From: Candidatus Latescibacterota bacterium
GTDB taxonomy: Bacteria; Latescibacterota; UBA2968; GCA-2709665
DNA length: 64,000 bases
Assembly: GCA_965219455.1 (NCBI GenBank)
Contig: OZ244744.1
Coordinates: 5,504,001-5,568,000 of the forward strand
Direction: 5' to 3'
Shown here: piece by piece, positions 24,759 through 64,000 of the stretch
Layout: every line of letters begins with the position of its first letter
How positions within the stretch are numbered: the first letter of the stretch is position 1
Notes under the pieces: model-generated
Told to the model about the DNA's origin: nothing
The model's database searches: none
Seen by the model: the letters and a program-made list of their open reading frames with translations, nothing else
Position numbers and translations under genes: made by a program

Positions 24759-24820
24759 TTTGATCTGATCTCCGGAAATTAACGCGCGGCGTCGCTCTTT
24801 GGGCACGCGCACGGTGTCCC

Positions 24821-35868: not shown

Positions 35869-35931
35869 GGTGCACTCTTCGAATCGGTGGACTATTGGGA
35901 AACGGGGAACAAATAAGGACCAGCAAAAAAC

Positions 35932-35953
35932 AGACAAATATCTGTCTTGTCAA
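35932..35953 (-). promoter_or_regulatory. Candidate lexA -35 box and autoregulatory operator
   Basis: TTGACA at 35953-35948 immediately followed by the palindrome AGACA-N6-TGTCT (35932-35947). Confidence 0.5.
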
Positions 35954-36349: not shown

Positions 36350-37381
36350 TCATTTCGTTTCCGATGATTCGGTCGCGTTGTCTGAGGCTGTTGTTGGTGC
36401 GGTGGGGGCGTCCCCCTTCTCTCCCGTTGGCGATTCTTCGCTTATGCTGCCCGTGTCCACAGGCTCTGATTGCGGGGCACGTAATCGAGTGAGCTTTTCC
36501 TTAAGCGCCGACCAGAGCCCGGACAGGCCAACCTGCTGTCGCGATGCCGGGGTCTCTTCGTCCTGATCGTCTCCCTCCACATCGGTATCTTCGGTAATCG
36601 CCTCCTCGCTGCAATCGGCCTCCGGGGCGTAGAGCAACACGGTGGTATTGTCCTGGTAGGGACGTTCCGCGGCTTCCACGGCATGGATCAGCGCGCCTGC
36701 GACGTCGTCGAGTGACGCGTCGCCTTGATCGTCAAGAATTCGCTCGATCTCCTCATCCCCGAGGGTCATCAGGCCGTCGCTTGCCAGCAGGAGTCGATCT
36801 GTTTTCCGGACCGCAACCGGCTGGGACGAGACGTCAACCAGGTGGATCTCCTCGCCCATCACCGCGGACCGCAGCGCATGCCGGTTGGAATCCGTGGCCG
36901 CCTGCTCAGCGGTCATGCGACCGGCCGCCACCAGGCTGGCCAGTACCGGCGCCATGGAATGATCGGCATTGAGGCGGCGCAACCGGCCGTCTCGGAACAG
37001 CCACAGCGGGGAATCCCCCACGCTGATCCAGTCGATTCCATCGCGCGAAATCACCGCCACGACCACCGTGGACCCCATCCCCTTCATTTCGGGGTTTTCG
37101 CTCGTCGCGTCGGCGAGGGCGTCGTTGGCGGCGGCAAGGCAGGCGCGCAGACGATCCGGGATCGGTCCATCCGTGGCGGGATAGGTTTCCACGAACGTCT
37201 TGACAACGGTCCTGCTGGCCGTGTCGCCGCTCACGTGCCCCCCCATCCCGTCGGCGAGCACCAGCACCTCGCCGCCGTCCGCGTCGGATTCATCCCGCTC
37301 GATCAGGCCGTAATCGTCCTCCTGGTATTCCCGGCCGCCGGGAATCTGCCGCGCGGCGAATCGTCCTTCCAATCGGTTCAT
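36350..37381 (-). CDS. PP2C-family Ser/Thr phosphatase (copy 1)
   Basis: REYQED, LADGMGGH, VGDS, ASDGL, QDNTT; acidic disordered tail. Confidence 0.93.
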   Translation of the reverse strand: MNRLEGRFAARQIPGGREYQEDDYGLIERDESDADGGEVLVLADGMGGHVSGDTASRTVVKTFVETYPATDGPIPDRLRACLAAANDALADATSENPEMKGMGSTVVVAVISRDGIDWISVGDSPLWLFRDGRLRRLNADHSMAPVLASLVAAGRMTAEQAATDSNRHALRSAVMGEEIHLVDVSSQPVAVRKTDRLLLASDGLMTLGDEEIERILDDQGDASLDDVAGALIHAVEAAERPYQDNTTVLLYAPEADCSEEAITEDTDVEGDDQDEETPASRQQVGLSGLWSALKEKLTRLRAPQSEPVDTGSISEESPTGEKGDAPTAPTTASDNATESSETK

Positions 37382-40626: not shown

Positions 40627-40734
40627 GGTGGTAACCTCAATGCGTGGTCAATTGCAAAACCAATCCAGGGAGGGCAAGAGTGTCCGCCTGCATTCTTTAA
40701 CGATAGCTACAGCCACAGTTGCAACGGAAGCCGC

Positions 40735-40840
40735 GGGAGATTCTTCGACTCCGCTCAGAATGACATGCTTTGCAGTAACCATTGGTGAACTGTGTCCGTC
40801 ACGTGTCGGCACAAACTGTCAGGCTGAGGAAGCCTGCAGG
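40735..40840. repeat. CTCAGAATGACA / TGTCATGCTGAG intergenic repeat
   Basis: 40735-40810 is identical (76 bp) to 59601-59676; related pieces at about 43720-43795, 59445-59860 and 63885-64000. Confidence 0.8.
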
Positions 40841-40982
40841 GGGGAGAAATCGGGTGCGAAGGCGCTTTCTCGCGGGGTTCTCCAAGAGCGCCACAGACGC
40901 GCGGGTTTATTCGCTTTTCGGTTTTGCCGTTCGCTCTTTGCTTCAAGCTGTCTGCTGACGGCTGAACGCTGACAGCTTGTTT

Positions 40983-43836: not shown

Positions 43837-45815
<1,979 letters not shown>

Positions 45816-45833: not shown

Positions 45834-46577
45834 TTACGTATCCTGCCAGTCAAACGCGTCGCCGCACAGGGGTACGAATCGCAGAACCGTATCCCCGACG
45901 CCGATATGGCTATGCGCAGGTAATTCAGTTGGAACCAGTACGGGCTGATCCCCCAGGTAGGTCAAATTGGCGCCAACGCCGTGCTGCACGGTAAACTTCC
46001 TGCCGCGGGGATCGTAGTTCACGATGGCATGTCCCCCCCGGGATACCTGACTATCGCCGAAATCGAGGTTCACGCGAGCGGTCTCTCCCCGGCCAATGGT
46101 ATTTTGCCCGTAACCCAGCTGAAGGGCTTTTCCCTTACCGGGTCCCTCGACAATCGCCAACCACCCCACAACCGGATTATTCATGCCGTCGGCTTCGACG
46201 GCGGGCTTCCGCTTTTCACCCGGCGTCGGGCGCCCACCGATGTTGATGACTGTGCGTTCCTCCTCCTTTCCCGGTCCGGGCGTTGAGGCGCGCTTTTTCT
46301 TACGTCGTCCGACGGGGAAGTCGGTTGCCGGTTCCGTCTGTCCAAGCAGTTTTGTGGGCTCATCCAGGCGGCCCCCGCCAGCGACGTCGCCACCCCGCTC
46401 CGGCGCGGGTTGCCGCCCCGGCTTAGTGGGTTCATTCGAACCTCCCGCGGTCTCACGGCCACCCGGATGGGCCGGCGGCGCCAGATCTTCAATCCGATCA
46501 GTCGGCACGGTTCCGTCGTCCGTCTTTTTACTTTTCTCCTCCACGATCTTGCCATCGGGTCCGCGGTAAACGGGCAT
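45834..46577 (-). CDS. FHA-domain protein with long disordered N-terminus
   Basis: VVGWLAIVEGPGKG, IGRG, VSR..H, NLTY; Pro/Gly/Thr-rich N-terminal region. Confidence 0.85.
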   Translation of the reverse strand: MPVYRGPDGKIVEEKSKKTDDGTVPTDRIEDLAPPAHPGGRETAGGSNEPTKPGRQPAPERGGDVAGGGRLDEPTKLLGQTEPATDFPVGRRKKKRASTPGPGKEEERTVINIGGRPTPGEKRKPAVEADGMNNPVVGWLAIVEGPGKGKALQLGYGQNTIGRGETARVNLDFGDSQVSRGGHAIVNYDPRGRKFTVQHGVGANLTYLGDQPVLVPTELPAHSHIGVGDTVLRFVPLCGDAFDWQDT

Positions 46578-46919: not shown

Positions 46920-47693
46920 TCATTTTTCATACAGCCTGTTAATCAGATTATCCAGACAGTACTGGCCCGACCGGTTCAACGCCATTTCCTCTTTCTGCTG
47001 CACGACATGCAGGGCAAAGACAAGCAACGCCGATTGGAGCAGGGCAAGCAGAGTCGTGTAGAACGCAACGCCCAGCCGCCCGGTGATCTCCGGCAGCAGA
47101 TTCGGATCCTGTGGATTTTCATTGCTTCCGGCGTAATCCAGCGCCAGGGCGATCCCCACAACCGTGCCGATAAAACCCAGCGTGGGAATCAACCAGACCA
47201 GGTACCGCAGCATGTTGTATTTGAGTTCAAGCTCGTGTTGAAACAGTTCAAGGGAAGAATTCAAGAGAGAATTCGCCTGGTTGACGGATCCGCTGCCCTG
47301 GAATTGCAGGATGCAGCGCAAGGTCAGACGCTGCAGAAAATACGTCGGCTCCCCGTCCGCCGGGCGCAACCTGTTATAGAGAGGGCCCAGGTCCTGCGAT
47401 CGCAACATGCTCGTGTCGTCTTCCGGTAGATATCGCATCGAGAGTTGCGCTGTCTCCAGGTTGGATTGGTTGAACCGCCGCCACAACTCGCCGCAACTGA
47501 TGAAAAACATAATCCACATGGTATTCTGGATGGAAAACGGATAGGAATTCGCCTGCCGATCGAGCAGGAAGTCGCCAGCCATGGAATCGCCGCTCTTGAA
47601 AATGAAGCTCATTACGGCAATGAATACAACGCCGGTGACCACGCTCACGCCGAATGCGATCAGCCGTAGATTCGTCTCGGAATTCCGTTCCAT
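46920..47693 (-). CDS. MotA/TolQ/ExbB proton-channel family protein
   Basis: IPTLGFIGTVVGI and GVAFYTTLLAL TM motifs; ATG 47693 directly after the FHA gene stop. Confidence 0.88.
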   Translation of the reverse strand: MERNSETNLRLIAFGVSVVTGVVFIAVMSFIFKSGDSMAGDFLLDRQANSYPFSIQNTMWIMFFISCGELWRRFNQSNLETAQLSMRYLPEDDTSMLRSQDLGPLYNRLRPADGEPTYFLQRLTLRCILQFQGSGSVNQANSLLNSSLELFQHELELKYNMLRYLVWLIPTLGFIGTVVGIALALDYAGSNENPQDPNLLPEITGRLGVAFYTTLLALLQSALLVFALHVVQQKEEMALNRSGQYCLDNLINRLYEK

Positions 47694-47694
47694 A

Positions 47695-48081
47695 TCAGCC
47701 CTCGTCTGGAATGATTTCACCTGTATCGGGATTGCGGCGTACGTTGCCCCCGGGAAGGGCGTCCGCCTGTTTCGGGTCGGCAGCCGGGCGCCCCGGGTCC
47801 TGATCACCCCTCGCTCCGAGTTTCTGCAGTAGTCCGAGCGCAGTTGTCTGGTGACGACCGAGGAGAATTGCATCCTCTGGGGATATGAATTCCTGCCTGA
47901 TGCGGATCCACTCGCCATTCCGCGCCACGTAACTGCCGTTCCTGCTCGCACAGTCGGTCAGATAGTACGACCCTTTCGCGGTTACGACCAACTCGGCGTG
48001 GATACGTGAGACCGTGGCGTCGTCAATGCGAATATCCGCGTCCGTACCGCGACCGATTCTATACGTCGAAAAGCCGGACAT
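47695..48081 (-). CDS. Small FHA-domain protein
   Basis: IGRG, VSRIHA, SRNGSY. Confidence 0.88.
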   Translation of the reverse strand: MSGFSTYRIGRGTDADIRIDDATVSRIHAELVVTAKGSYYLTDCASRNGSYVARNGEWIRIRQEFISPEDAILLGRHQTTALGLLQKLGARGDQDPGRPAADPKQADALPGGNVRRNPDTGEIIPDEG

Positions 48082-48872: not shown

Positions 48873-50489
48873 TCAGGATTTGGAAACCATCAACTCCACG
48901 TCGCCCAGCGCAACAGTGGCGCCATAGTCCAGACGCTCCGGACGAAAGGGAGGCAGGCGACGGCGATTCAGCAACGTCACGTTGCTCGAGTTCAGATCTT
49001 CGATACGAAATCCATTGTCAGCAGCGCTGATTCTGACGTGACGCCTGGATACATTGTCGTCGTGGATGACTTCATCCACAAGGTCCGGATGCCTGCCCAG
49101 CGAAAGTCCCAGCCGTTGTCCCACGAATTTTTCCGGCGATAGCGCGATGCGAACGCGGTTGCCCCGCCCGTCGAACCCGGCCAGCACCAGACCGTGTCCC
49201 GGGCGCTGCCCTTCCGGTGGTCCTTCAACCGCCCCGTCGTGCGCTCTTCGTCTGATGGGCCGGCTCAGCTGTTCGGCAACGTGGATGATCTGCTGCCGTG
49301 GTTTCTTCAGGCCGAGCAGCAGGGCCGCGAATGTCAGGATACCAAGAAACGTCCCACCTATAAGAAAACGCCGTCGCGACGCTTCAGCATGCAGACGAGT
49401 TTCTTCAACTTCCCGCATCGCTTCTTCCACCTGGCGCGCGGCCTCACCTGCCTGGCGCTTCGCATCCTCCGCCTCCTGGCGCGTCCGTCCCGCTTCCCGG
49501 GTCGCTTCCTCCGCTCGCCGGGTCGCTTCTTCGGCCTCCTGGCGCGTCCGTCCTGCTTCCCGGGTCGCTTCCCCCGCTCGCCGGCTCGCTTCTTCGGCCT
49601 TCCGACGCGTTTTTTCTGTTTCCCGGCTTGCTTCTTCCGCCAGGCGCCTGGCCTCCCCCGCCTGGCGCCTGGCCTCCCCCGCCTGGCGCGTCGCTTCTTC
49701 CGCTTCGCGGCGTGCCTTTTCCGCCTCCTCGTATCCACCGGCGCCACCTGCCGGCGCGCACGGACTGGTTTCCGGTGTTTGGAAAGGGATTCGGTGATCG
49801 CGAAGCAGCGTTACCAATTCCTCCACGTGTGAAGACCAGTATATTCCCGCCGCGTGGGGCACGCGGGTGACTCCCTCGGATTGGCTTTCGATGACAACGA
49901 GAGACGCCTGCGTATTCACGCCAATCACCCTCCCGCAATCATCCAACAGTGGTCCCCCGCTGTTACCGGGATTCGTAGGGGCGTTGTGTTGAATAATTCT
50001 GAACGTCTGCGTGTGCCAGGCACCGGAAAAGAGCCTGCCGATGACGCCGTCCTGCACCGTCGCATCATCGGCGAAACTCTCTCTATCTGCCTCTCCAGGA
50101 TAGCCGATGGCCCACACCTTCTGTCCAGCCTTCAGTTCAGCGAGGGAAAGCCGCACGGGCGGGAGATCGAGTCTTCGCGCGTGGAGGATTGCCAGATCCA
50201 GTTCGGTGGATACGGCAATCACCTTGACGTTGTACAGGGAATTGGACTTTGCAGGGCGAACCCTGATCCGGCCGCCGCTGTCAATCACATGGAGGTTTGT
50301 GGCGACAAATCCTCGATCATTGATCACAAACCCTGTACCTGTGCCGATCCCCTGGTTCGTCTCAGTCAGAATCCGAACAACACTCCTCTTCAGCCTGTTG
50401 AAATCCGGCGTGGCCAACACGTCGTGCCCGTGTAAGAGAAACGCGATCAGGAGACAGACGGCACGCAACGATCTGACAGCTTTCCGCAT
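48873..50489 (-). CDS. Trypsin-like serine protease - heptad stalk - TM - FHA
   Basis: Signal peptide; triad TNLHV, LDLAIL, PGNSGGP; about 16 heptads; TM; FHA LGR..VSRRH..SSN. Confidence 0.88.
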   Translation of the reverse strand: MRKAVRSLRAVCLLIAFLLHGHDVLATPDFNRLKRSVVRILTETNQGIGTGTGFVINDRGFVATNLHVIDSGGRIRVRPAKSNSLYNVKVIAVSTELDLAILHARRLDLPPVRLSLAELKAGQKVWAIGYPGEADRESFADDATVQDGVIGRLFSGAWHTQTFRIIQHNAPTNPGNSGGPLLDDCGRVIGVNTQASLVVIESQSEGVTRVPHAAGIYWSSHVEELVTLLRDHRIPFQTPETSPCAPAGGAGGYEEAEKARREAEEATRQAGEARRQAGEARRLAEEASRETEKTRRKAEEASRRAGEATREAGRTRQEAEEATRRAEEATREAGRTRQEAEDAKRQAGEAARQVEEAMREVEETRLHAEASRRRFLIGGTFLGILTFAALLLGLKKPRQQIIHVAEQLSRPIRRRAHDGAVEGPPEGQRPGHGLVLAGFDGRGNRVRIALSPEKFVGQRLGLSLGRHPDLVDEVIHDDNVSRRHVRISAADNGFRIEDLNSSNVTLLNRRRLPPFRPERLDYGATVALGDVELMVSKS

Positions 50490-50492
50490 GAC

Positions 50493-52070
50493 TCACTCCG
50501 GGATCAGACGCACCTGAAACACCACGGGCCCCATCTCCAACCGATCGTTGTCCCGCAATTCCTCCGGTTCATTGGCGTTGAGCGTGCGGCCGTTTACCCT
50601 GGTTCCGTTCGTGGAGTTCAGGTCCTCCGCGTAGAGGCGTCCGCCGGCATACGAGAACCTGACGTGTTCGCGTGAGACGGCTTCGTGGGCGATGATAAAT
50701 TCCGAGTTGGCGGGGCTTCTTCCCAGCGCAACGCCGGAGGGCAGCGCCAGCGCCGGGACGCTCAACACAAAGGGCCGCCCCACGTCGTCCTGGCCTTCCA
50801 GCAGACACCTGAACGGCGCGGGTTGGGGCGCGCGCGCCGCGGCCTGCCGCGCGGCTTCTGCCTGCCGTTCCGCCTCTTTGGCGCGGGATGAACTGCTGTG
50901 CAACTGTGCTCTTTTCGCGCGTGCGAATAGCAACCAGCCGAGAAGCAATAGAACGACGACGGCAGCCCCAGCGAGAACGGTCCATTGAAACCGTTCGGAC
51001 GTCTCTTCGCGCTCCTGGTTCTGAACCGCGGCCAGGCTATCCCGTGTTGTCCGGAGTCGATCTGCCGCCGACATTCTTATGGAATCCGCACGCGTGCGGG
51101 CCAGGGAATCCGCCCATGCATGCGCCCGTGTCAAACTGTCTTCCCGCGCCTGTTTCAAGGAATCGGTCCGGGCCTGCGCGCGTTCGAGGCGTCTTCTTTC
51201 TGCCCTCAGGCGTTCGTCCGCCGCCGACTTTATGGAGTCCTCCCGCGTCTGCCGCAGGGAATCTGTCCTTGCCCGTTCCCGTCTCAGACTGTCTTCCCGT
51301 GCCCGGGTCAGGGAATCTTTCCGCGCCTGCGCCCGTCTCAAGCTGTCTTCCCGCGCCTCCGCGCGTTCAATAGCAGTCAGGCATGCGTCGTCAACGAAGG
51401 TATGGGCAATTTCCGCATCATTGAGCACGTTCACGATATCGCCGCTGCGCAACGCGAAGACGGTTCCCCTGGGATCCTTGTCGTTCCGGAACGGCCAGCG
51501 CCCGCTCTCCGGGTCGGGCAGGTTGATGCCAACCACGTCCCCACATTCATTGAACACGGGCATACCGAACGCCCTTGACGTCACAATGGCGTTGTGCTGC
51601 AGCAGATGTACGACGGAATCGGCAGGGGTCCTGCCCGGGACGTCCTGGTGGGCGCCGATGGTACCGCGGGCAACCCGGACGCTGTCACCAGCGGCGAACG
51701 TGAGGGTCTCCACCACCCGCCCCACGCCGGCCCCCTGCTCCGACAGGCTCAGGGGCGGGGATCCCAGGCCCTGCACGCGCAACAGAGCGAGGTTCATCTC
51801 CCTGCTGGCGAATACCTCCCGGGATAAAATCTCCGCACCAGTCTTCAGGGACAACACGGTCACCCGGTCCGCATTCGCCAGGAGGTGCGCGTTGGTCAGC
51901 ACGTCTCCGTTTCCATTCACGACAAAGCCGCACCCTTCGGCCGCGACCCTGTTATATCTGTGCGCACGCACCCGGACGATGCTCTCCGATACGACGTCGA
52001 CGTCGATTTGCCCGAACGCCGGGCCGGCCAACGAGAACACAGCGATCTGCACAAGCAACGAGACTCGCAT
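50493..52070 (-). CDS. Inactive trypsin-like domain - DSL-repeat stalk - TM - FHA
   Basis: Signal peptide from ATG 52070 (preceded by AGGAG); TNAH kept but MNLALL and SRAFGMP replace the Asp and GNSGG; intact FHA LGR..VSREH..STNGT. Confidence 0.85.
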   Translation of the reverse strand: MRVSLLVQIAVFSLAGPAFGQIDVDVVSESIVRVRAHRYNRVAAEGCGFVVNGNGDVLTNAHLLANADRVTVLSLKTGAEILSREVFASREMNLALLRVQGLGSPPLSLSEQGAGVGRVVETLTFAAGDSVRVARGTIGAHQDVPGRTPADSVVHLLQHNAIVTSRAFGMPVFNECGDVVGINLPDPESGRWPFRNDKDPRGTVFALRSGDIVNVLNDAEIAHTFVDDACLTAIERAEAREDSLRRAQARKDSLTRAREDSLRRERARTDSLRQTREDSIKSAADERLRAERRRLERAQARTDSLKQAREDSLTRAHAWADSLARTRADSIRMSAADRLRTTRDSLAAVQNQEREETSERFQWTVLAGAAVVVLLLLGWLLFARAKRAQLHSSSSRAKEAERQAEAARQAAARAPQPAPFRCLLEGQDDVGRPFVLSVPALALPSGVALGRSPANSEFIIAHEAVSREHVRFSYAGGRLYAEDLNSTNGTRVNGRTLNANEPEELRDNDRLEMGPVVFQVRLIPE

Positions 52071-52554
52071 AAAGAGACTCTCCTGGAGGAAAGTGAAAGG
52101 TCTCACAGTATGGACAGGATTCCGGTCTTTGGTTTTATCCTGTTCATCCATGTTCCTCGATTTCGTGAATTGAAGCCATACTCGCCACGTGTTGCGAAAC
52201 GCAACAGATGGCGCATATTGCGACAGTCTGGCGCGCACGATGCCGGACACGTCCGACGTTTCAGTCCGGTCTCTTCTCTTTCGAGTATTGCCCGGACAAC
52301 GCATTGCGCGGAACATCCGCCAACCTGAATCGTTACCGAACCGACAATATATAGTCTACTATTCTTAATGCAACCATTAGATATTTTACGTATTTATATA
52401 TACTTTACATTTTTATATACACGTTCGGTACTATTTTCCGCGAGTTTACCCATCGTCGTGGCTGATTGTTCTCATCGGCGTTGACTTTAGACGCATTTAA
52501 ACGTGCGCCACGGATACAGGCCGGGCGCGACCGCGGAATACAGGTAAACAGGGA

Positions 52555-52596
52555 CAGAACAAAACAAGGGGCTACGTCGGCGGACGTAGCCCCTTG
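52555..52596 (-). terminator. Intrinsic terminator-like hairpin
   Basis: Perfect 14-bp stem CAAGGGGCTACGTC/GACGTAGCCCCTTG, 4-nt loop, followed by TTTTGTT on the minus strand. Confidence 0.6.
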
Positions 52597-53369
52597 CATT
52601 CAAATATTCGCGGGCGCCCGGATTAGAACCGGGGCCCCGTTCGCAAAACCACAACACAAACTTACAGTTTGTGTAACGATTGTACGGTAGTCTGACAGTT
52701 TGTGTTACGACCGTACTGCAATCTGCCGGTTGTGTAGCGGCCCCTATACCGGTTGTATAGCGTCCCCTGTTCTGGTTATGCAAGGGGCGACGGAGACACG
52801 TTCACCGATGGACGGATCCCCTTATACAAAGAGGCATATGGCGATAAACACCGAAAAAAAACTCCAAATACTAACGATTCTGTTTGATCCGGTGTCATGA
52901 ATCACCACTCTTGTGCGACATCCCAGATTTTCTTGGTCGACTCCCAGCTGCCATAATTCCTGACCGATTTTAGAACGGCGTCACAATTCCGAATAACCCA
53001 GCCGTACGCGACTTTAGCCCACGCCCAATCTAAAGCTAACCTCAATTCGAAAAAACAGCAACGCGGCGCCGCGACGAAAACTTCCGAAACGGGGCATAAA
53101 GGTCGTCCAAAAGGATGTTTTTTCCGTTCACGTCCAGTGACCCTATGTATCCTGGAAATCCGACGTCAAATCGCCTTTGTTCTTCTGTGTATATTCGACT
53201 TAAGGTCCCCAAAAAACGACGAATCAAGGTTAACAGTTGTAATGCAAAACACTGCCCTCTTCCAGGAAGCCTCCCGGTCTCCGTGCAAAATCGGCCGCCA
53301 CGTGCGACGATCGGCGCGCCACCGACGTGGCGTTCGCCCGGGTCGCAAGGCCGGAAAGGTTGCAGCCAG

Positions 53370-53700
53370 CCGCAGGGGCGACCGGCCGGTCGCCCCTACA
53401 AATAACGCGAATCGATCATCTCCACTCCGACACGGGACTCTGAGGTCTCGGTTTCATGGACGTGAGCAGACAGGAATGTCCGCTCCACCCTCTCAAGCCT
53501 CTTCTCGATGTTCGCTCGAGCGCATCAACCATCATCTCCACGCCCGTACAATGGCTTGTCGAGCCCGTGAAGAATCGCGTGTGAAGGTGGGGCAGACATT
53601 CCTGTCTGCCTTTTTCAGTGTTCTTCTGCCGGAATGCAGATAGAAGAAAGGCGCCCACGGCCTTCTTATCGCAGGGCGACCAGCCGGTCGCCCCTACAAA
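53370..53700. repeat. REP/REPIN-like composite block (copy 2)
   Basis: REP palindromes at 53372-53399 and 53671-53697; segments homologous to 36040-36290 in permuted order. Confidence 0.8.
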
Positions 53701-53704
53701 TACC

Positions 53705-54736
53705 TCATCTCGTTTCCCCGGACTCGGTGGCGCTGTCCGCGGCTGCCGAGGGCCTCTCGGGGGTGTCCCCCTTCTCTTCCACTGTCGAATCCTGGATTTT
53801 GCTGCAGGTGTCCTTTTGCTCCGATTGCGGGGCAGGCAATCGAGTGAGCTTTTCCTTAAGCGCCGACCAGAGCCCTGACAGGCCACCCTCCTGTCGCGAT
53901 GCCGGGATCTCTTCGTCCTGATCGGCGTTTTGCGCGGCGCTGTCTTCGGAAATCGTCTCCTCGCCGCAATCAGCCTCCGGCGAGTAGAGCAACACGGTCG
54001 TGTTGTCCTGGTAGGGACGTTCCGCGGCTTCCACGGCATGGATCAGCGCGCCGGCGTCGTCGTCGAGTGACGCGTCGCGATTATCGCAAAGGATTCGCTC
54101 GATCTCCTCATCCTCGAGGGTCAACAGGCCGTCGCTTGCCAGCAAAAGTCGATCTGTTTTCCGGACCGCAACCGGCTGGGACGAGACGTCAACCAGGTGG
54201 ATCTCATCGCCCATCACCGCGGAGCGCAGCGCGTGCCGCTTGGAATCCGTGGCCGCCTGTTCTGCGGTCATGCGCCCGGCCGCTACCAGGCTGGCGAGTA
54301 CCGGCGCCATGGAGTGATCCGCATTCAGGCGGCGCAACCGGCCGTCGCGGAACAGCCAGAGCGGGGAATCCCCCACGCTGATCCAGTCGATTCCGTCGCG
54401 CGAAATCACCGCAGCGACCACCGTGGACCCCATGCCCTTCATTTGGGGATTTTCGCTCGTCGCGTCGGCAAGCGCATCGTTGGCGGCGGCAAGGCAGGCG
54501 CGCAGACGGTCGGTGATCGGACCGTCGGTGCCGGGATAGGTCTCCACGAACGTCTTGACAACCGCCCTGCTGGCCGTATCGCCGCTCACGTGCCCCCCCA
54601 TCCCGTCGGCCAGCACCAGCACCTCGCCGCCGTCCTCGTCGGCGTCACCCCGCTCGATCAGGCCGTAATCGTCCTCCTGGTATTCCCGGCCGCCGGGAAT
54701 CTGCCCCGCGGCGAATCGTCCTTCCAATCGGTTCAT
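53705..54736 (-). CDS. PP2C-family Ser/Thr phosphatase (copy 2)
   Basis: Same length (343 aa) and near-identical catalytic domain to copy 1. Confidence 0.93.
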   Translation of the reverse strand: MNRLEGRFAAGQIPGGREYQEDDYGLIERGDADEDGGEVLVLADGMGGHVSGDTASRAVVKTFVETYPGTDGPITDRLRACLAAANDALADATSENPQMKGMGSTVVAAVISRDGIDWISVGDSPLWLFRDGRLRRLNADHSMAPVLASLVAAGRMTAEQAATDSKRHALRSAVMGDEIHLVDVSSQPVAVRKTDRLLLASDGLLTLEDEEIERILCDNRDASLDDDAGALIHAVEAAERPYQDNTTVLLYSPEADCGEETISEDSAAQNADQDEEIPASRQEGGLSGLWSALKEKLTRLPAPQSEQKDTCSKIQDSTVEEKGDTPERPSAAADSATESGETR

Positions 54737-54930
54737 GGCATTCCTCCATTACGGCGCAGGACCGATGCCGTCCCATCAGTCTTGCATTCCATCACGGATC
54801 GTTGCGGCGCCCCTCCCCCACGTTCGCGGGGCAAGAGGGACACCGCACCCACCTCATCATGACCGTCCCTGGACGCTCCGTTGCATACCCGGCACCCCCT
54901 TGGGGACACCGGCTCCAGCCGTCGAGCGTG

Positions 54931-55045
54931 CGGGCAATACGAAACCCGTTGTTGTTGTTCCGTTTGCCGGTGGTATTCCTGTTGCGGTTCGCCGAGCGCA
55001 GGTTCCTCGGTTTGTTGTTCCACGAGCCGCCGCGCAACACGCGCT
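54931..55045 (-). ncRNA. DGR template repeat (TR)
   Basis: Begins at the RT stop codon; reads TGG AAC AAC AAA CCG AGG AAC CTG CGC TCG GCG AAC CGC AAC AGG AAT ACC ACC GGC AAA CGG AAC AAC AAC AAC GGG; 30 adenines in 16 codons. Confidence 0.95.
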
Positions 55046-56130
55046 CAGGAGGGACGATCAGGCTTCCAAAGCGGATCGAACCACCCGCCTCGAAAGATCG
55101 CATGGCGCAAACGCCATGTATTGGCATGCTCTGCATGCGCGATCCACGCGTGCACCCGCGCGTCCACTTCCTCGCGTGTGATATGTGCATGACGCCAGCG
55201 GTCGCGCATACTCCGCAACCGGTTGCGAAAGCGGCGCACATTGGCTTCAGGCAACCGCCGGTATCCGCCCGGCAGGAGCACAAAACCCAAGAAAGTGGTC
55301 GGTGCTAATGTCTCGTCAATCATCGTTTTTTCCGGGTGCAGAGACAGCCGGCGGCGCTGCAAAAAATCCGCGATGCCATCCCGCCAGGCAGCGAGTTGTT
55401 CCGGGTCGTCGTGAAAAAGCGCAAAGTCGTCGACGTAGCGGACGTAGCCGCTGGCTCGCAACATTTCCTTGCAGAAGTGATCCAGGCCGTCCAGGTATAA
55501 ATTGGCGAAAAACTGGCTGGTCAGATTGCCAATGGGTAACCCGCGCCGGCGTTCGATAGGCGTGAACAGATCGTCCCCAGGATAGTAAATATTCACCGGC
55601 TCCTGCGGATTGGAACCATCAATGATGCGGTCGGCCAGCGCCAGCGTGCGCTCACAGGCGATTCGACGGCGTAGATCCGCCTTGAGAATCTCGTGATCGA
55701 TGGCTGGAAAGTAACGGTAAAGGTCGCACCTCAACACGTGGCGAAAACGGTCGCGGAACCGTTCGTAACGCACGATCGCCCGGTGGGTTCCCTTGCCCTG
55801 ACGATTCGCATAGCTGTCGAAAATGAAACCGCGCTCGAAGAGCGGCTCAACGACACCGCAAAAGGCGTGATGGACGACACGGTCCCGAAACGGCGCCGCG
55901 GACACGGTGCGTCGTTTGGGTTCGCGGATCTCGATCGTCTTGTAACGGCCCGGACGATAGCGCCCGCTTTGGAGTTCCCGCTCAAGGCGCAGGACCTTGG
56001 GCTCCAGGTTCGCCAGGAACCCAGCCGCGACGGGTTTGGACCGTTTTCCCCGTGCCGCTTTTCGGGCCGCCACCATCAGGGCCGGGAAGGAAACGATCTC
56101 TCCGAAAATATCACGTGCTCTTGTGGGCAC
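55045..56130 (-). CDS. DGR reverse transcriptase
   Basis: PKRR.VSAAPFRDRVVHHA, GLPIGNLTSQFFANLYL, YVRYVDDF; GTG start at 56130 overlapping avd. Confidence 0.95.
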   Translation of the reverse strand: MPTRARDIFGEIVSFPALMVAARKAARGKRSKPVAAGFLANLEPKVLRLERELQSGRYRPGRYKTIEIREPKRRTVSAAPFRDRVVHHAFCGVVEPLFERGFIFDSYANRQGKGTHRAIVRYERFRDRFRHVLRCDLYRYFPAIDHEILKADLRRRIACERTLALADRIIDGSNPQEPVNIYYPGDDLFTPIERRRGLPIGNLTSQFFANLYLDGLDHFCKEMLRASGYVRYVDDFALFHDDPEQLAAWRDGIADFLQRRRLSLHPEKTMIDETLAPTTFLGFVLLPGGYRRLPEANVRRFRNRLRSMRDRWRHAHITREEVDARVHAWIAHAEHANTWRLRHAIFRGGWFDPLWKPDRPS

Positions 56131-56509
56131 GATGCACCTTTTGCCAGCCGCCGACAAGGCGTCCGGTTTCGTCGAGGGTCCTGGCGGCATGTTCGTAGCG
56201 ACGGAGATCAAGATAATGCAAATCACGGGCGAGCCGGCACAGAAATCTTAGCTTCTCGATGCCCAGGTTGGCGAGCGCAAGCGCATCACCCCGGCGCCTG
56301 GTGTAAGTCGCCTCGATCAGACGCTCCAGAACGTCCAATGCCGACGTCTGAATCCTATCTCCCAGAAGAAACTTCTGGCTGCGCGGGAAACGCTCGACGG
56401 TGGGGACCAACCAGACCAGAAAACGAAAGTGGGACTCCAGCGCCGGGCCAATCTCGCGCGAGCGGTCACCCCGGCCAGGAACTGGCTGTTGGCCGTCCCT
56501 TGCGTTCAA
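56111..56509 (-). CDS. avd: DGR accessory variability determinant Avd
   Basis: Basic four-helix-bundle pattern FPRSQKFLLGDRI...LRFLCRLA...GRLVGGW between target gene and RT. Confidence 0.92.
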   Translation of the reverse strand: MNARDGQQPVPGRGDRSREIGPALESHFRFLVWLVPTVERFPRSQKFLLGDRIQTSALDVLERLIEATYTRRRGDALALANLGIEKLRFLCRLARDLHYLDLRRYEHAARTLDETGRLVGGWQKVHRAHKST

Positions 56510-56635
56510 AACCGCCCTCCATTTTTCAGTATGTCGACATGCCTTGGCATACGTGCCTTTCCACCAGAGCCGGTCCTACCAAGATCGCACCTACTGGCAA
56601 CGACCGGGTCTTTAGCATGCCCAGACCGAAAATTC

Positions 56636-56658
56636 CCAGGGGGGCTGTGCCCCCCTGG
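56636..56658. promoter_or_regulatory. DGR target-recognition hairpin/cruciform downstream of VR3
   Basis: CCAGGGGGGC-TGT-GCCCCCCTGG, perfect 10-bp stem about 30 bp after the stop codon. Confidence 0.8.
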
Positions 56659-56688
56659 ACCCCCCATAAGACGTAAAGAGGTAAAGAT

Positions 56689-59334
56689 TCAAGGCGTAAG
56701 CGTCCGGGCAATACGAAACCCGATGACGATGACCCGTCTGCCGGCGGTATTCCTGAAGCGGAACGCCGAGCGCAGGAACCCCGGTATGATGCCCCACGAG
56801 CCGCCGCGCAACACGCGCTGCGCGCAGGCACCCCGCCCCCACGCCGTTCCGTCCGCAGGCGCTCCTGTATAGCTGTCGTTCCAGCAATCCCCAACCCACT
56901 CCCATACGTTGCCGTGCACGTCATACAAACCCCACGCATTGGCGCTGAAACTTCCCACAGATACCGTCTTTTCCCTATTCCGACCCTTCCGACCACTGCC
57001 ATACGTATAATTCCCGTTGTAATTCGCCTGGGCCGTCGTAATCGTCGATCCAAAATGAAATGGCGTCGTCGTACCCGCACGAGCCACGTACTCCCATTCC
57101 GACTCGCTCAACAATCGATACCTTTCACCAGTCCTTCGCGACAACCACCGCACGTACGACTGCGCGTCATCCCAACTCACATTCATCACCGGGCGGTTCC
57201 CACGGCCCCAGCCCCTGTCGTTGGGACGATATCCACCGCAACCTCCGGCATTCGCGCACGCGTCCCATTCCGCAAACGTGACTTCATATACACCCACCGC
57301 GAACCGATAATCGATACTCACGCGATGGCGCGGACCCTCATCGTCATCACGTCCCGACTCCCCACCGGGAGACCCCATCATAAACTAGCCCGACGGCACC
57401 ACCACCATCTCCGGACATTCTGCACAGTCCCTGAATTTTCCGCCTACCGTCCTGCGCAGCCGCTGGGTTTCTCGCGCTGCCGACAGACGGCCTTCCTTCC
57501 CGGACAACGTTGACGTTTCCGCATCGACTGCGCGTAATGAATCCACATACCCTCCCGCCTTGTCAAACGCCTCTTCTTCCAGGGTTTTCTCAAACATCCC
57601 TTTATACCGCTCGATTTTGGCTTGGCGAAGACGTTCTGTTTCCTCTGCAGCAATCCGTGCACTCTCGGCTTCCTGGCGACTTCGCTCCGCCTCGCGCGCA
57701 GACGACAGACGACCTCCCAACTCTGACAACAAGCGAGCAGATGCGTTTACAGCACGCAATGAATCCACGTAACTGCCCGCACGATCGAACGCCTTCCCGC
57801 CCAGGGATTCCTCGAACTTCCGCTTATGTTCCGCGATTTTAGCCTGACGAAGACGTTCTGCCTCCTCCGCTGCCAAACGCTCCCTGCGCTCCTCCTGGCG
57901 ACGACGCTGTTGCACCGCGCGCGCCGCAGACAGGCGCTCTTTCAGACTCGACAACACCGGCGCATCGGCCCAGACACCCCGTATCCGGGACATATTCTTA
58001 TCCGCCTTATCGAAATCCTTGTCCTCCAAAGCTCCGTCAAATTTGGATACGTAACGACCGATCACGCTATCCAGACCGGCGCTCGCTTCCTTATGGCCCG
58101 GCGCCAGAACCAATACCGCCTGATATTTCTCCCAGGCGTTGTTCCCCGCGGGACTCGTCAGCCGGTCCCGCGCCAGGTCTTCCACAGCACCGCCCAATAA
58201 TGCGGAGACCTGCGCATCCTGTTCCGCTTCCATCGCACGGCGAAGCTGATCCGGGCGATGGATGTGTTCATAGTAATAGTAGCCCCCTCCGATCAGAAGC
58301 GCCAACACACATACGAGCATGGCGAACAACGGTCCTTTGCGCTTCCCGGGCTGCCTGACGGGTGGATCATCGACGGTCTCGCGCTGCCGTGATCTCGGTG
58401 GGCGACCCTTCGCGGGCTTGACGACCGGCCGCGGTTTCTTCGCGGTGCCCGGCGTCTCCCCGGAAAGCGCAGTACGCCACGCGGCCACGCTCTGCGGGCG
58501 GTCGCCCTCATCCACCTTCAACGCCAAATCTATCGCCGCCAGAAATCCTCCGCTCGCCTGCCCGACGCTACGCTCGGCCACCGGCGTCAATGGATCGTTC
58601 CGCACCCTATCCGTGGCATCGTCAGGCACTCCACCCGTCAACGCGTGGTAGCACACGGCGCCCAGCGCATACACGTCCGTCCAGGGACCCTGGTCGCCGC
58701 GACTGGAATACTGCTCGATGGGCGCGTAACCCGGCGTGATGATCGACGTAACCGAGCGGCTGCGCGCCCCGATCGCCTGCCGAGCAGCCCCGAAGTCCAG
58801 CAACACCGGCGAATCGTCCGCGTCACGGATGATGATATTTCTCGGCTTGATGTCACGGTGCAGAAAGTCAGCCCCGTGAACCACCTCAAGACCGTCCAGG
58901 ATCGGATATAGGATCGCCTTCAGTTCCGCTTCGTCCAACGTCTTTCTGCGTTTGAGGAATTCCGACAGCGTGTCCCCCTCGGCATATTCCATCACGATAT
59001 ACGCCGTGCCGTGCGCCTCAAAAAAGCGAAACACTTTGATGATATGCCGGTGGTCGAAGCGGGCGAGGGTGCGCGCTTCGTCCAGGAATCGTTCCAGGCC
59101 CCACTCGAAGTCGCCGCGAAAGTGACTCGCCTGCGGCGCCACGCTATTATCGGCCGTACGGGTGGCGATATCGGCGGGAAGGTATTCCTTGACCGCGACC
59201 CCTTTGTCCAGGTTGTGGTCAAAGCCCAGATACGTCATCCCGAAGCCGCCGAAGCCCAGCACTCTCACCAGTTCGTACTCCTGCAGCCGATGCCCCTGGG
59301 GCAGGGCGTTGAGCGGGTGTTGCGCGTCGTTCAT
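56689..59334 (-). pseudogene. Receptor-like kinase - TM - stalk - CLec (K3, cognate DGR target) split by an in-frame TAG
   Basis: ORFs 57385-59334 and 56689-57381 are in the same frame; TAG at 57385-57387 where paralogs have TCG/TCA (Ser). Confidence 0.85.
56705..56819 (-). repeat. DGR variable repeat VR3 (cognate)
   Basis: 115 bp colinear with the TR; all 19 mismatches fall on TR adenines. Confidence 0.95.
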
Positions 59335-59444
59335 GGTGGTAACCTCACAGTTTGTGCAACTCCCCGCAAACTATCAGTTTGCGGTACGGATTGAGTTCAC
59401 AAGACGTATTTTGCTACAGTTTTAGTTGCGCGGCGCACATGCTT

Positions 59445-59860
59445 CGGTTCAGAATGACAGGTCGGTCGATCACCATTGGCGAATCGTGTCCCACACACCT
59501 GCGCCCTAACTGTCATGCTGAGGAAGCCGCCAGGCTGACGATGCGTCCGCGTCAATGTTCGTCGATCAACAGCACGCGCTCATGGGTCAATCGCACGTAC
59601 GGGAGATTCTTCGACTCCGCTCAGAATGACATGCTTTGCAGTAACCATTGGTGAACTGTGTCCGTCACGTGTCGGCCCTAACTGTCATGCTGAGGAAGCC
59701 TACAAGGCCGACGAAGCATCTACTGCGGCATGGGATCATGCCCGGGCGTCTGGCATTCGATCCGAACTAAAATGCGGCACAACCGCTCCCGCTTCGACTC
59801 CGCGCAGAATGACAGATGCCCTGAAATCATCAGCGAAACGTGTCCGTCACACGCACGCCA
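59445..59860. repeat. Array of CTCAGAATGACA / TGTCATGCTGAGGAAGCC inverted repeat units
   Basis: Three AGAATGACA and two TGTCATGCTGAGGAAGCC units alternate; homologous to the blocks upstream of K1, K2 and K4. Confidence 0.75.
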
Positions 59861-61078: not shown

Positions 61079-61103
61079 TCCAGGGGGGCGCAGCCCCCCT
61101 GGA
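61079..61103. promoter_or_regulatory. DGR-type hairpin downstream of VR4
   Basis: TCCAGGGGGGC-GCA-GCCCCCCTGGA, 11-bp stem. Confidence 0.8.
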
Positions 61104-61131: not shown

Positions 61132-63777
61132 TCAAGGGGTAAGCGTCCGGGCAATACGGAAACCGATGACGTCGTTCCGTTTGCCGGCGGTGTTCCCGTC
61201 GCGGTCCGCGGCGCGGAGGTTCCCCGGGTAGACGTACCACGAGCCGCCGCGCAACACGCGCTTCGAACAATCGCCCCGCTCCCACGCTGATCCTTCCGCA
61301 GGCGCACCCGTATAGCTGTCGTTCCCGCAATCCTCAACCCACTCCCATACGTTCCCGTGCACGTCATACAAGCCCCACCCATTGGCGCTGAAACTGCCCA
61401 CAGATACCGTCTTTTCCCGATACAAACCCTTGCGACCGCCGCCGTACGTATGTTTGCCATTATAATTCGCCTGATCCGTCGATATTGTCGATCCAAAATG
61501 AAACGGGGTCGTTGTTTCCGCACGAGCAACGTACTCCCATTCCGACTCACTCAACAAGCGATACCTTGCACCCGTCTTTTCCGACAACCACTGAACGTAC
61601 AACTGCGCGTCATCCCAACTCACGTTGATCACCGGGCGATTCCCGCGCCCCCAGCCCCTGTCGCTGGGACGATATCCCCCGCAACCCCCAGCGGACGCGC
61701 ACGCGTCCCACTGTGCAAACGTCACTTCATACACTCCAACCGCAAACCGATAACCGATCACCACGCGATGGCGCGGACCCTCGTTATCGTAACGTCCCTC
61801 CTCGCCGCCGGGAGACCCCATCATGAATGAGCCCGACGGTACCACCACCATCTCCGGACAATCCGCGCAGTCCCTGAATTTTCCGCCTACAGTCCCACGC
61901 AGCCGCTGGGCCTCACGCCCTGCCGACAGACCACGCACCAATCCGGACAACGTTGACGCTTCCGCATCGACTGCGCGTAATGAATCCACATAGCCATCGG
62001 CCCTGTCAAATGCCTCATCTTCCAGGGCTTCCTCAAACTTGCCCTTATACCGCTCGATCTTAGCCTGGCGAAGACGTTCTGCTTCCTCTGCAGCCCTGCG
62101 TGCACGCTCGGCTTCCTGACGACTTCGCTCCGCCGCGCGTGCAGACGACAGACGATCTCCCAACTGTGACAACAAGCGAGCAGATGCATTGACAGAGCGC
62201 AGCGATTCCACGTACCTGCCCGCTGCATCGAAATCCTTTCGGCCGAGCGATTCCTCGAATTTTCGTTTGAAATCCGCCACTTTGGCCTGATGAAGGCGTT
62301 CCGCCTCTTCCGCTGCCAGCCGCTCCCTTCGCGCTTCCCGCTGACGACGCTGTTCCGCACCGCGCGCAGCAGACAGACGGTCTGTCAGGCTCGACAATAC
62401 GGGCGCATCGACCCACGCGCCCCGTATGCGAGACACATATTCTTCCGCCTTGTCGAACTCCTTGGTACGCAATGACGCATCAAACTTCGTCACGTAGCGG
62501 CCGATTACGCTGTCCAGTCCCGCGCTCGCCTCCTTCTGACCGGGCGCCAGGGCCAATACCTCCTGGTATTTCTCCCAGGCATTATTGCCCGCGGGACTCG
62601 TCAGCCGGTCCCGCGCCAGGTCTTCCGCAGCACCGGACAATAGCGCGGAGATCTTCGCTGTTTGTTCCCCTTCCTGCGCCTGCCGGCGCTGCGCCGGCAG
62701 ATGGATGTTCTCATAGTAGTAATAGCCCCCGCCGATCAGAAGCGCCAACACACATACGAGAACGGCGGCGAACAACGGTCCTTTGCGCTTCCCGGGCTGC
62801 CTGACGGGTGAATCATTGACGATCTCGCGCTGCCGTGATCTCGGTGGGCGACCCTTTGCGGGCTTGACGACCGGCCGCGGTTTCTTCGCGGTGCCCGGCG
62901 TCTTTCCGGAAAGCGTAGTACGCCACGCGCCCACGCTCTGCGGGCGGTCCCTTTCATCCACCTTTAATGCCCAATCTATCGCCGCCAGAAATCCGGCGCT
63001 CGCCTGACCCGCGCAACGCTCGGCCACCGGCGTCAGCGGATCATTGCGTACCCGATCGGTCGCATCGTCCGGGACGTCACCCGTCAGCGCGTGGTAGCAG
63101 ACAGCGCCCAGCGCATACACGTCCGTCCAGGGCCCCTGGTCGCCGCGACTGGAATACTGCTCGATGGGCGCGTAACCCGGTGTGATGATCGACGTAACCG
63201 AGCGGCTGCGCGCCCCGATCGCCTGCCGCGCCGCGCCGAAGTCCAGCAGTACCGGCGAATTGTCCTCGTCACGGATGATGATATTGCCGGGTTTGACGTC
63301 ACGGTGCAGAAAATCAGCCCCGTGAACCACTTCCAGACCATCCAGGATCGGATATAGGATCGCCTTCAGTTCCTCTTCGTCCAACGTCTTTCTGCTTCTC
63401 AGGACCTGGGAAAGCGTCTCCCCCTCGGCGTATTCCATCACGATATATGCCGTGCTGTGCGCTTCGAAAAAGTGATGCACGCGCACGATATTGGCATGCT
63501 GGAAACGCGCCAGTATCCGCGCTTCATCCAGGAACCGGTCCAGGCCCCATTTGAAATCCGCGGACGCTTCCGACGACTGCGGGACCACCGACATGTCGTT
63601 TTCCCGCGTCGCGAGATCGGATGGCAGATACTCTTTGATCGCCACGGGGATATCCAGCGCGATATTCCACCCCAGATAGGTGATCCCGAATCCGCCCTGG
63701 CCCAATACACGGTGAAACTCGAAGTCCTGTATTCGCGTGCCCTGTGGAAGCGCCAACCGGTGGTGCGCGTCGTTCAT
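61132..63777 (-). CDS. Receptor-like Ser/Thr kinase - TM - stalk - CLec (K4, DGR target)
   Basis: Intact kinase motifs with a divergent N-lobe; TM; CLec ending RGGSW...GFRIARTLTP. Confidence 0.93.
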   Translation of the reverse strand: MNDAHHRLALPQGTRIQDFEFHRVLGQGGFGITYLGWNIALDIPVAIKEYLPSDLATRENDMSVVPQSSEASADFKWGLDRFLDEARILARFQHANIVRVHHFFEAHSTAYIVMEYAEGETLSQVLRSRKTLDEEELKAILYPILDGLEVVHGADFLHRDVKPGNIIIRDEDNSPVLLDFGAARQAIGARSRSVTSIITPGYAPIEQYSSRGDQGPWTDVYALGAVCYHALTGDVPDDATDRVRNDPLTPVAERCAGQASAGFLAAIDWALKVDERDRPQSVGAWRTTLSGKTPGTAKKPRPVVKPAKGRPPRSRQREIVNDSPVRQPGKRKGPLFAAVLVCVLALLIGGGYYYYENIHLPAQRRQAQEGEQTAKISALLSGAAEDLARDRLTSPAGNNAWEKYQEVLALAPGQKEASAGLDSVIGRYVTKFDASLRTKEFDKAEEYVSRIRGAWVDAPVLSSLTDRLSAARGAEQRRQREARRERLAAEEAERLHQAKVADFKRKFEESLGRKDFDAAGRYVESLRSVNASARLLSQLGDRLSSARAAERSRQEAERARRAAEEAERLRQAKIERYKGKFEEALEDEAFDRADGYVDSLRAVDAEASTLSGLVRGLSAGREAQRLRGTVGGKFRDCADCPEMVVVPSGSFMMGSPGGEEGRYDNEGPRHRVVIGYRFAVGVYEVTFAQWDACASAGGCGGYRPSDRGWGRGNRPVINVSWDDAQLYVQWLSEKTGARYRLLSESEWEYVARAETTTPFHFGSTISTDQANYNGKHTYGGGRKGLYREKTVSVGSFSANGWGLYDVHGNVWEWVEDCGNDSYTGAPAEGSAWERGDCSKRVLRGGSWYVYPGNLRAADRDGNTAGKRNDVIGFRIARTLTP
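61148..61262 (-). repeat. DGR variable repeat VR4
   Basis: Versus the local TR: 14 changes at adenines and 6 at non-adenines, all six shared with VR1. Confidence 0.8.
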
Positions 63778-64000
63778 GGTGATATCCTCACGGTTTGTGC
63801 AACTCCCCGCAAACTACGAGTTTGCGGCACGCATTGAGTTCACGTGGCGCTTTTTGCTACAGTTTTAGTTGCGCGGCGCCCGCGCTTCGGTTCAGAATGA
63901 CAGGCCGGTCGATCACCATCCGCGTATCGTGTGCCACACACCTGCGCCCGGATTGCCATGCTGAGGAAGCCTACAAGGCCGACGATGCGTCCGCGTCAAT

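Follow-up and report, generated by a model that had tools for sequence, protein, structure and literature searches.

Layout and core parts of the retroelement

The 64,000 nucleotides (nt) analysed here, referred to as the window, come from contig OZ244744.1 (positions 5,504,001 to 5,568,000, forward strand) of a Candidatus Latescibacterota bacterium assembly (GCA_965219455.1) and carry a diversity-generating retroelement (DGR) composed of a target gene that ends in a variable repeat (VR), the accessory gene avd, a reverse transcriptase (RT) gene and a template repeat (TR) followed by a structured spacer. The order target, avd, RT, TR given by an initial annotation of this DNA is borne out by the coordinates (Table 1). 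We read the locus as a chromosomal DGR of the common avd-RT-TR layout that varies the sensor domains of receptor kinases, and place this reading as a whole at a probability of about 0.88; its core is genuine and complete, and of a kind that is both known and common. The target in the cassette, T3, is one of four paralogues (T1 to T4) in the window. The GTG start of the RT gene overlaps the end of avd by 20 nt, a 180-nt gap that includes a hairpin separates the downstream open reading frame (ORF) of T3 from avd, and about 190 nt of non-coding sequence lie between the TR and a PP2C phosphatase gene. The avd-RT-TR core order is the architecture termed B2 in the accessible text of Wu et al. (2018, PMC5758913); here it lies on one strand with no other accessory gene.

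Table 1. Positions of the DGR parts, the target genes and the adjoining phosphatase gene in the window. IMH, initiation of mutagenic homing; aa, amino acids.
Feature	Position	Strand	Basis and remarks
Whole DGR cassette: target, avd, RT, TR		all minus	Coordinates and Pfam
T3 upstream piece, 649 codons	57388..59334	minus	Pfam Pkinase 1.4e-36; kinase, basic linker, one hydrophobic helix, repeat-rich region
In-frame TAG splitting T3	57385..57387	minus	Both ORFs share the frame; paralogues carry TCG (Ser)
T3 downstream piece, 230 codons	56689..57381	minus	Pfam FGE-sulfatase 6e-49; C-type-lectin-like, ends in the VR
VR3	56699..56819	minus	Variable repeat in step with the TR; alignment
IMH-like 3' end of VR3, GCCCGGACGCTT	56698..56709	minus	Alignment with the TR end
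GC-rich hairpin, 10-11 bp, 3-nt loop	56635..56659	minus	Perfect inverted repeat, about 30 nt past the target stop
avd	56111..56509	minus	Pfam bAvd 4.9e-17; NCBIfam NF033474
DGR reverse transcriptase	55045..56130	minus	Pfam RVT_1; GTG start at 56130, frame open back to 56226
Bracketing duplex, 5' strand, UGAUCGUCCC	55051..55060	minus	In the last RT codons; predicted to pair with 54869-54860
Template repeat, 121 nt, 33 A	54925..55045	minus	Repeat family D12; alignments
Spacer RNA scaffold (predicted)	54804..54924	minus	RNAalifold, pair counts, covariance model, fold
Tetraloop stem-loop	54912-54889	minus	Between the duplexes; RNAalifold
TR:spacer duplex, 3' strand	54879-54871	minus	Predicted to pair with 54931-54923
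Invariant A	54870	minus	Between the two duplexes
Bracketing duplex, 3' strand	54869-54860	minus	Predicted to pair with 55060-55051, 10 bp
Conserved UGAUGA	54859-54854	minus	After the bracketing duplex
Long stem with conserved UCUUG interior loop	54846-54804	minus	Fold and alignment
PP2C Ser/Thr phosphatase gene	53705..54736	minus	Directly after the spacer; Pfam PP2C_2
T1, 874 aa	38002..40626	minus	VR1 38012-38135; Pfam; alignment
T2, 874 aa	40983..43607	minus	VR2 40993-41113; Pfam
T4, 881 aa	61132..63777	minus	VR4 61142-61262; Pfam Pkinase and FGE-sulfatase; IMH and hairpin as in T3

Both protein components belong to recognized families. Avd passes the curated model NF033474 (DGR protein Avd) at 100.8 bits against a cut-off of 80. 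The best match of the RT among solved structures is 8ub7_A (E = 2.9e-42), which we take to be the Bordetella phage bRT, with group II intron RTs behind at 4e-20; the alignment with 8ub7_A has IG.LTSQ and Y.DD stretches in common, the former presumably corresponding to the IGxxxSQ signature motif. NCBIfam holds no DGR-RT model, and the matches of the RT to its group II, Drt and retron models lie far below their cut-offs. The RT family is very large and tightly conserved, with at least 8000 homologues at E <= 1e-20 and identities of 72-90% among the best 120, and the RT aligns end to end, without a break, with homologues at up to 90% identity. Many of the annotated homologues are about 60 residues longer, and the consensus of their common tail resembles a translated TR. 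Eighty related loci (L001-L080) were fetched by means of this RT family and searched for A-biased repeats, and an A-biased TR/VR pair was found in 58 of them.

The TR begins at the stop codon of the RT, as had been annotated: the TGA occupies 55047-55045, and the homology between the TR and VR3 runs from 55045, the A that ends this codon, to 54925. Between the conserved TGG and GGG codons, read in the frame of the VR, the TR holds nine AAC, two AAA, one AAT, two AGG and two ACC codons, and the annotated count of 30 adenines in 16 codons, with a DNA variant space of 4^30 or some 10^18, is confirmed (1.15e18; about 3.3e16 at the protein level by arithmetic from the genetic code). VR3 differs from the TR at 20 positions, 19 of which fall on TR adenines (12 A>T, 7 A>G and no A>C). 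The earlier statement that 19 of 19 mismatches lie at A thus holds outside the IMH, and the probability of all 19 falling on the 33 adenines among 120 sites is 1.4e-13. The 20th difference, C>G, lies within the IMH-like end at the position matching 54930, while the 88 non-adenine sites outside that position show none. The divergence of the 3' ends was also described correctly: the TR ends in GCCCGCACGCTC (54935-54924) and VR3 in GCCCGGACGCTT, which differ in the last base and at the position matching 54930, where VR3 has G and the TR has C, and the sequences beyond are unrelated. The hairpin past VR3 is terminator-like, with the tail AATTTTCGGT, and recurs 3' of VR4 at 61079-61103; it may serve target recognition by the DGR or be an intrinsic terminator. 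A scan for promoters and terminators gave no more sites than shuffled sequences did, except for this strong hairpin.

Four receptor-kinase targets and the split gene T3

The core of the TR occurs five times in the window, namely in the TR itself and in four VRs; the VRs form the ends of paralogous genes some 875 codons long. The interval initially assigned to the element, 54750..56819, leaves out most of the target gene and hence its in-frame TAG, and the presence of four targets was likewise missed. Each target is made up of an N-terminal Hanks-type kinase, a basic linker, one hydrophobic helix, a repeat-rich region and an FGE-sulfatase domain; the HRD and DFG motifs and the VAxK lysine are visible in the alignment, as is the hydrophobic stretch near residues 335-356. 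Both domains lie in one whole protein in T1, T2 and T4 and in two ORFs in T3. Because the helix stands between the kinase and the C-type-lectin-like (CLec) domain, the sensor would lie outside the cytoplasm, and the targets read as membrane receptor Ser/Thr kinases with an outer FGE-sulfatase sensor. The element would accordingly vary what the kinases sense.

The combination of domains recurs among relatives, 90 of the best 120 relatives of the T3 kinase piece carrying both Pkinase and FGE-sulfatase. One of them, P0173, bears the NCBI name 'Bifunctional serine/threonine-protein kinase/formylglycine-generating enzyme family protein'; the make-up is the same, but the name implies an enzyme, whereas here the FGE-sulfatase domain is the binding domain varied by the DGR. 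The targets next to related RTs are different in this respect: in a domain scan of 48 of 73 VR-bearing frames, mostly one per locus, all had FGE-sulfatase and none a kinase, with TIR, NACHT, caspase and other domains instead. The other 25 frames comprise further, mostly shorter, frames of loci already represented and the sole frames of about seven loci (those concerned include L006, L033, L035, L041, L058, L070, L071 and L074).

All four VRs differ from the TR mainly at adenines, and only VR3 is in step with it. In VR2, 16 of 21 differences fall on A (P = 3e-7) and five do not; in VR4 the figures are 14 of 21 (P = 3e-5) and seven; VR1 has many non-adenine differences and a 3-nt insertion beside the AAC run. 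Some of the non-adenine differences in VR1, VR2 and VR4 adjoin the IMH, where any homing event would erase them. VR3 is, as far as these repeats can tell, the only copy rewritten since the paralogues diverged.

The gene that ends in VR3 has one internal stop, which falls at residue 650 of 882, where the sensor domain begins; here TAG stands in place of the TCG of the three paralogues, and the change is a single base (repeat family D17 shows base differences). The frame through the only target in step with the TR is therefore not open (649 + 230 codons), whereas T1, T2 and T4 are whole. The downstream piece holds almost the complete FGE-sulfatase domain (profile positions 15-255 of 255). TAG ends 8 of the 41 long frames in the window and is thus an ordinary stop here, so that nothing suggests read-through. 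An ATG ATG pair lies one codon past the TAG (57385-57387), and a restart of translation is conceivable. The description of the element as intact consequently applies to the core of RT, Avd, TR and spacer, which looks whole, and not to the target, which is split.

Several explanations of this state can be considered. One is that the cassette is a fossil: the machinery is no longer functional or no longer expressed, VR3 is the trace of an earlier homing event, and decay has begun with the nonsense codon of T3. The TAG in the VR3 gene is in keeping with this, as are the non-adenine drift of VR1, VR2 and VR4 near their 3' ends, which indicates that they have long not been rewritten by this TR, and a search of the protein collection, in which no intact T3 allele above 85% identity was found. 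The parts of the machinery point the other way: the RT is unbroken relative to homologues up to 90% identical, Avd passes its curated cut-off, the spacer RNA described below is the third best of 54 matches to its model, VR3 has no non-adenine difference at its 88 non-A sites outside the IMH position, and T3 carries one lesion only. We regard a fossil as possible, but as distinctly the less likely state of the cassette. The claim of recent or current activity fares accordingly: the purity of VR3 outside the IMH speaks for the recent part, while ongoing activity goes beyond what one assembled sequence can tell.

The TAG could also be an assembly or consensus error or a minority allele, the real gene encoding a whole 881-residue receptor kinase like T4. 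It is a single base off the TCG of the paralogues, and the remaining frame is clean and conserved, T3 being 80% identical to T4 over 880 aligned residues. The same truncated 649-residue protein is present in the public protein collection (P0123), which counts only weakly against an error since it may derive from the same assembly, and TAG is an ordinary stop in this window. On balance we hold an error or a minority allele to be rather improbable.

A comparably small chance is given to the idea that VR1 and VR4 are served by another DGR of the genome, located outside the window and equipped with a TR of its own. These two repeats have six non-adenine differences from the TR in common (positions 46, 50, 52, 70, 100 and 103), even though T1 is otherwise closest to T2, and a further kinase/FGE protein (P0161) is found on a contig equal in length to that of the window's own proteins. 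The sharing of bases could stem from a second TR, be ancestral or be due to gene conversion. Within the window, a 26-mer search for a second TR finds only the TR and the four VRs, the covariance model of the spacer gives one match only, and blastn and tblastn searches for a second avd or DGR-type RT find only the RT of a group II intron.

The spacer RNA and the position of the template repeat

The GC stems after the TR that had been pointed out are real in that the fold of the 194 nt following the TR (-101.3 kcal/mol) beats that of shuffled sequences (-81.7 +/- 5.1 kcal/mol; z = -3.9), one of 200 shuffles being as good, and their identity is that of a conserved DGR spacer RNA. The post-TR sequences of relatives are visibly alike. 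From a plain, unfitted MAFFT alignment of the window and 17 close loci (18 loci in all), RNAalifold predicted the bracketing duplex, the TR:spacer duplex, the tetraloop stem-loop and part of the long stem. Paired cells made up 89.8% of 606 in this alignment, compared with 35-44% when the partners were slid by 1-3 columns; two-sided changes were found in 28 of 34 pairs, and none of 500 shuffles reached any of five measures. The bracketing duplex has compensatory changes in nine of its 10 pairs across the 18 loci, and these alter the encoded RT residues from locus to locus (DRP, EQP, ERV, DGS); selection at the RT tail therefore acts on the RNA and not on the protein. Because this stretch is constrained as RNA, the position of the RT stop is not conserved, and here it touches the TR.

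A covariance model (R1) built from the 85-nt spacer core gave a single match in the window, at 54855-54939 with 86.8 bits, the third best of 54 matches. It matched 52 of the 80 loci, 35 of them outside the set from which the model was built, among them loci in which the TR precedes the RT and the element still comes after the TR. Fitting the alignment to this model leaves 95.8% of cells paired, and covariation is seen in 16 of 18 pairs. When the bracketing duplex was scored without gaps, 25 of 39 loci formed at least nine of its 10 pairs, compared with 235 of 1482 cross-locus comparisons, a control that is weak because relatives share sequence. Rfam offered no family for the spacer: at E <= 1 the region 52000-58000 gave only a chance small-RNA match inside the RT gene, and at the gathering thresholds the whole window gave only a group II intron. 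One related locus (L019) holds two copies of the spacer RNA, at L019:3104-3189 and L019:3784-3869, 680 nt apart.

The order of these elements corresponds to that reported for the phage DGR RNA in the accessible text of Handa et al. (bioRxiv 10.1101/2023.10.23.563531), in which a tetraloop stem-loop that binds Avd just past the TR is followed by a template-primer duplex of TR and spacer, at whose end lies the priming adenosine, then by two nucleotides, by a duplex joining the spacer to sequence that precedes the TR ('cPRT Stop'), by a single-stranded 'Thumb Ring' and by a long RT-binding stem with interior loops. To judge from the alignments, the spacer is a conserved DGR RNA that matches the order of the Bordetella phage DGR RNA element for element. 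The same preprint predicts like elements in 207 of 278 other DGRs, so the structured spacer, which had been singled out as a peculiarity of this locus, is a conserved scaffold. That the stems are only a terminator or a regulatory structure for the downstream PP2C gene is scarcely credible: they do lie between the RT/TR and the PP2C start (54736) in GC-rich DNA where some folding is expected, but compensatory changes maintain the helices at loci whose downstream genes are unrelated, the element comes after the TR even when the TR precedes the RT, one strand of one helix is 190 nt away inside the RT gene, and no T-run follows the stems.

The location of the TR after the RT, also presented as remarkable, is the ordinary B2 layout (Wu et al., PMC5758913, accessible text). 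Among the 80 related loci, no TR was detectable in 22; where one was, it follows the RT in 49 of 58 cases and precedes it in nine. In 47 of the downstream cases the RT stop was usable: in 15 of them the RT frame enters the repeat, in 21 the distance from the first base of the stop to the repeat is 1-24 nt, and in 11 it is larger. The stop of relatives ranges from 283 nt inside the repeat to hundreds of nucleotides before it. The corresponding distance in the window is +2. The TR position and the spacer structure are both clade-typical and mechanistically explained.

By analogy with the Bordetella phage DGR, we infer the following mechanism. The avd-RT transcript would extend past the RT gene to include the TR and some 120 nt of spacer. 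Base pairing between the last RT codons and the spacer (55060-55051 with 54869-54860) would bracket the TR, while the 3' end of the TR would itself pair with the spacer (54931-54923 with 54879-54871) and set a spacer nucleotide as the primer, the candidates being the invariant A54870 or its neighbours. The tetraloop stem-loop would bind Avd, and the long stem with its interior loop the RT. The RT would then copy the TR with errors at adenines, and the cDNA would replace a VR that bears the matching IMH and hairpin.

Changes at adenines alone suffice to make stops of three codons, AAA, AAG and AGA. The two AAA codons of the TR had been flagged as stop-capable and unusual; the first description holds and the second does not. 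Codons could be counted in 48 of the 58 related TRs, nine gapped TR/VR pairs and one frameless case having been dropped, and three of the 48 (L006, L017, L041) look mis-framed. At least one AAA occurs in seven of the 48, three AAA in two and some stop-capable codon in 12, with totals of 11 AAA against 411 AAC and 92 AAT. AAA codons are a minor but recurrent variant. Half of the adenines are replaced per homing event in the phage element, according to the accessible text of PMC6182149; if the same rate applied here and the three wrong bases were equally likely, both of which are assumed, about 13% of homing events would put a stop into the VR.

The base at 54930 is C in the TR and G at the matching position of all four VRs, and no other position within the TR:spacer duplex is left unpaired. 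The related loci gave 65 ungapped TR/VR pairs, and 49 of these show a difference of this type, with a pyrimidine in the TR and a purine in the VR within the last 12 nt of homology. Differences between IMH and IMH* are noted in general by Wu et al. (PMC5758913), the accessible text of which does not single out such a position, and no title concerning it appeared among the papers listed.

These observations allow a broader, joint interpretation. First, the last 'codons' of the RT may, throughout the clade, really form the 5' strand of the bracketing duplex; if so, the RT stop is free to wander, and the RT tails annotated across the TR are artefacts. Second, the TR pyrimidine (here C54930) and the VR purine may separate donor from recipient across the clade, in which case 54930 may mark the first uncopied base and keep the TR from becoming a target itself. 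Third, the split T3 could be a working two-part variant, a sensor-less kinase with a free CLec domain, and not a product of decay. That the RT-tail RNA element is clade-wide, that 54930 separates donor from recipient and that rewriting of the VR continued in the split gene all hold together is a tentative proposal, which we think is wrong more probably than right.

Several points weigh against the reading of the locus as a whole. The start codon of avd is uncertain (TTG at 56509, with no ATG), and Avd had no match among solved structures at E <= 0.01. The match of the spacer RNA comes from our own alignment and a preprint, with no Rfam family behind it; many of the distant, mainly cyanobacterial loci have only 7-8 of 10 bracketing pairs in the ungapped test, in an unsettled register; and the priming nucleotide and the protein partner of each helix are assigned by analogy alone. 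The frame of the only in-step target is broken, so a present benefit to the cell is doubtful and decay is possible. Recent activity is plausible, and a single assembled sequence cannot show that it is ongoing. The machinery of the chromosomal DGR (Avd, RT, TR, spacer RNA, IMH and target hairpin) nevertheless looks whole at the level of sequence.

Comparison with known elements and neighbouring genes

The DGR of phage BPP-1 (mtd-avd-TR-brt) resembles the present one in having Avd and an RT, adenine-specific differences between TR and VR, a VR at the C-terminus of a C-type-lectin-like fold, an IMH/IMH* pair, a GC hairpin after the VR and, according to the accessible text of Handa et al. (bioRxiv 10.1101/2023.10.23.563531), the same spacer RNA order. 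The TR and spacer precede the RT gene in BPP-1 but follow it here, and for this reason the upstream strand of the bracketing duplex lies in the last codons of the RT rather than in those of avd. Further differences are that the window element is chromosomal and not phage-borne, that its target is a kinase and not a tail fibre, and that no more than one or two bases distinguish its IMH from IMH*. The B2 DGRs with CLec/FGE-sulfatase targets in the accessible text of Wu et al. (PMC5758913) have the same gene order, Avd as the sole accessory gene, a C-terminal VR and more than one target gene, with targets that differ in the purity of A-to-N changes; as far as that text goes, the window element does not differ from them in kind.

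A close parallel for the targets is found in cyanobacterial kinase-CLec DGRs (Vallota-Eastman et al., 2020, PMC7517822, accessible text), which likewise combine an N-terminal Hanks-type kinase with a C-terminal CLec domain bearing the VR and likewise have several paralogues per genome with graded homology to the TR, some of them out of step. The RT clades are related as well (47-51% identity). In the same text the cyanobacterial variable proteins are mostly predicted to be cytosolic, whereas the targets in the window have one helix between kinase and CLec and also sit among PP2C and FHA genes.

As a discovery the locus carries little weight, since the layout, the RNA scaffold, the target fold and the kinase fusion are all in print. 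It does offer a clean natural instance of an avd-RT-TR cassette that has a counterpart for each RNA element of the Bordetella phage DGR, backed by strong covariation, and a membrane receptor kinase family with diversified outer sensors, which makes hypervariable signal sensing in a bacterium a testable case. The split target is a caution that an RT-TR-VR core alone does not make a DGR 'intact'.

The adjacent PP2C and FHA genes could be signalling partners of the kinases. The PP2C gene next to the spacer, with an NCBIfam Stp1/IreP-type match below its cut-off, is likely a partner of the kinases and not a part of the retroelement. It has a paralogue after T1 (36350-37381); the two are about 85% identical over 300 nt, and their starts 96% identical over 50 nt. 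An FHA-domain protein and two fusions of a trypsin-like peptidase with FHA lie among the kinase genes (45834-46577, 48873-50489 and 50493-52316, minus strand); within the gene at 48873-50489, tandem repeats of 63-nt and 21-nt units lie at 49441-49734. Upstream of the target genes, a sequence of about 108 nt recurs (40734-40841, 59428-59535, 59600-59707 and 63871-63978), twice before T3, and may be a shared promoter or leader.

A group II intron occupies 43863-45815 on the plus strand, between the start of T2 and the FHA-domain gene, with Rfam matches to D1-D4 (43863-44000, 104 bits) and domain V/VI (45669-45815, 45 bits); its RT/maturase (44288-45658, 356.8 bits in NCBIfam against a cut-off of 300) is the only other RT in the window. 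A tRNA/tmRNA search of the window found none. A MotA/ExbB-like gene is located at 46920-47951, and two adjacent paralogous genes of about 770 codons (22455-24812 and 24821-27100, minus strand) have stretches that are 72-76% identical (D15, D20). Downstream of the first PP2C gene, a LexA-like repressor gene (35251-35937, minus strand) combines Peptidase_S24 with a LexA DNA-binding domain.

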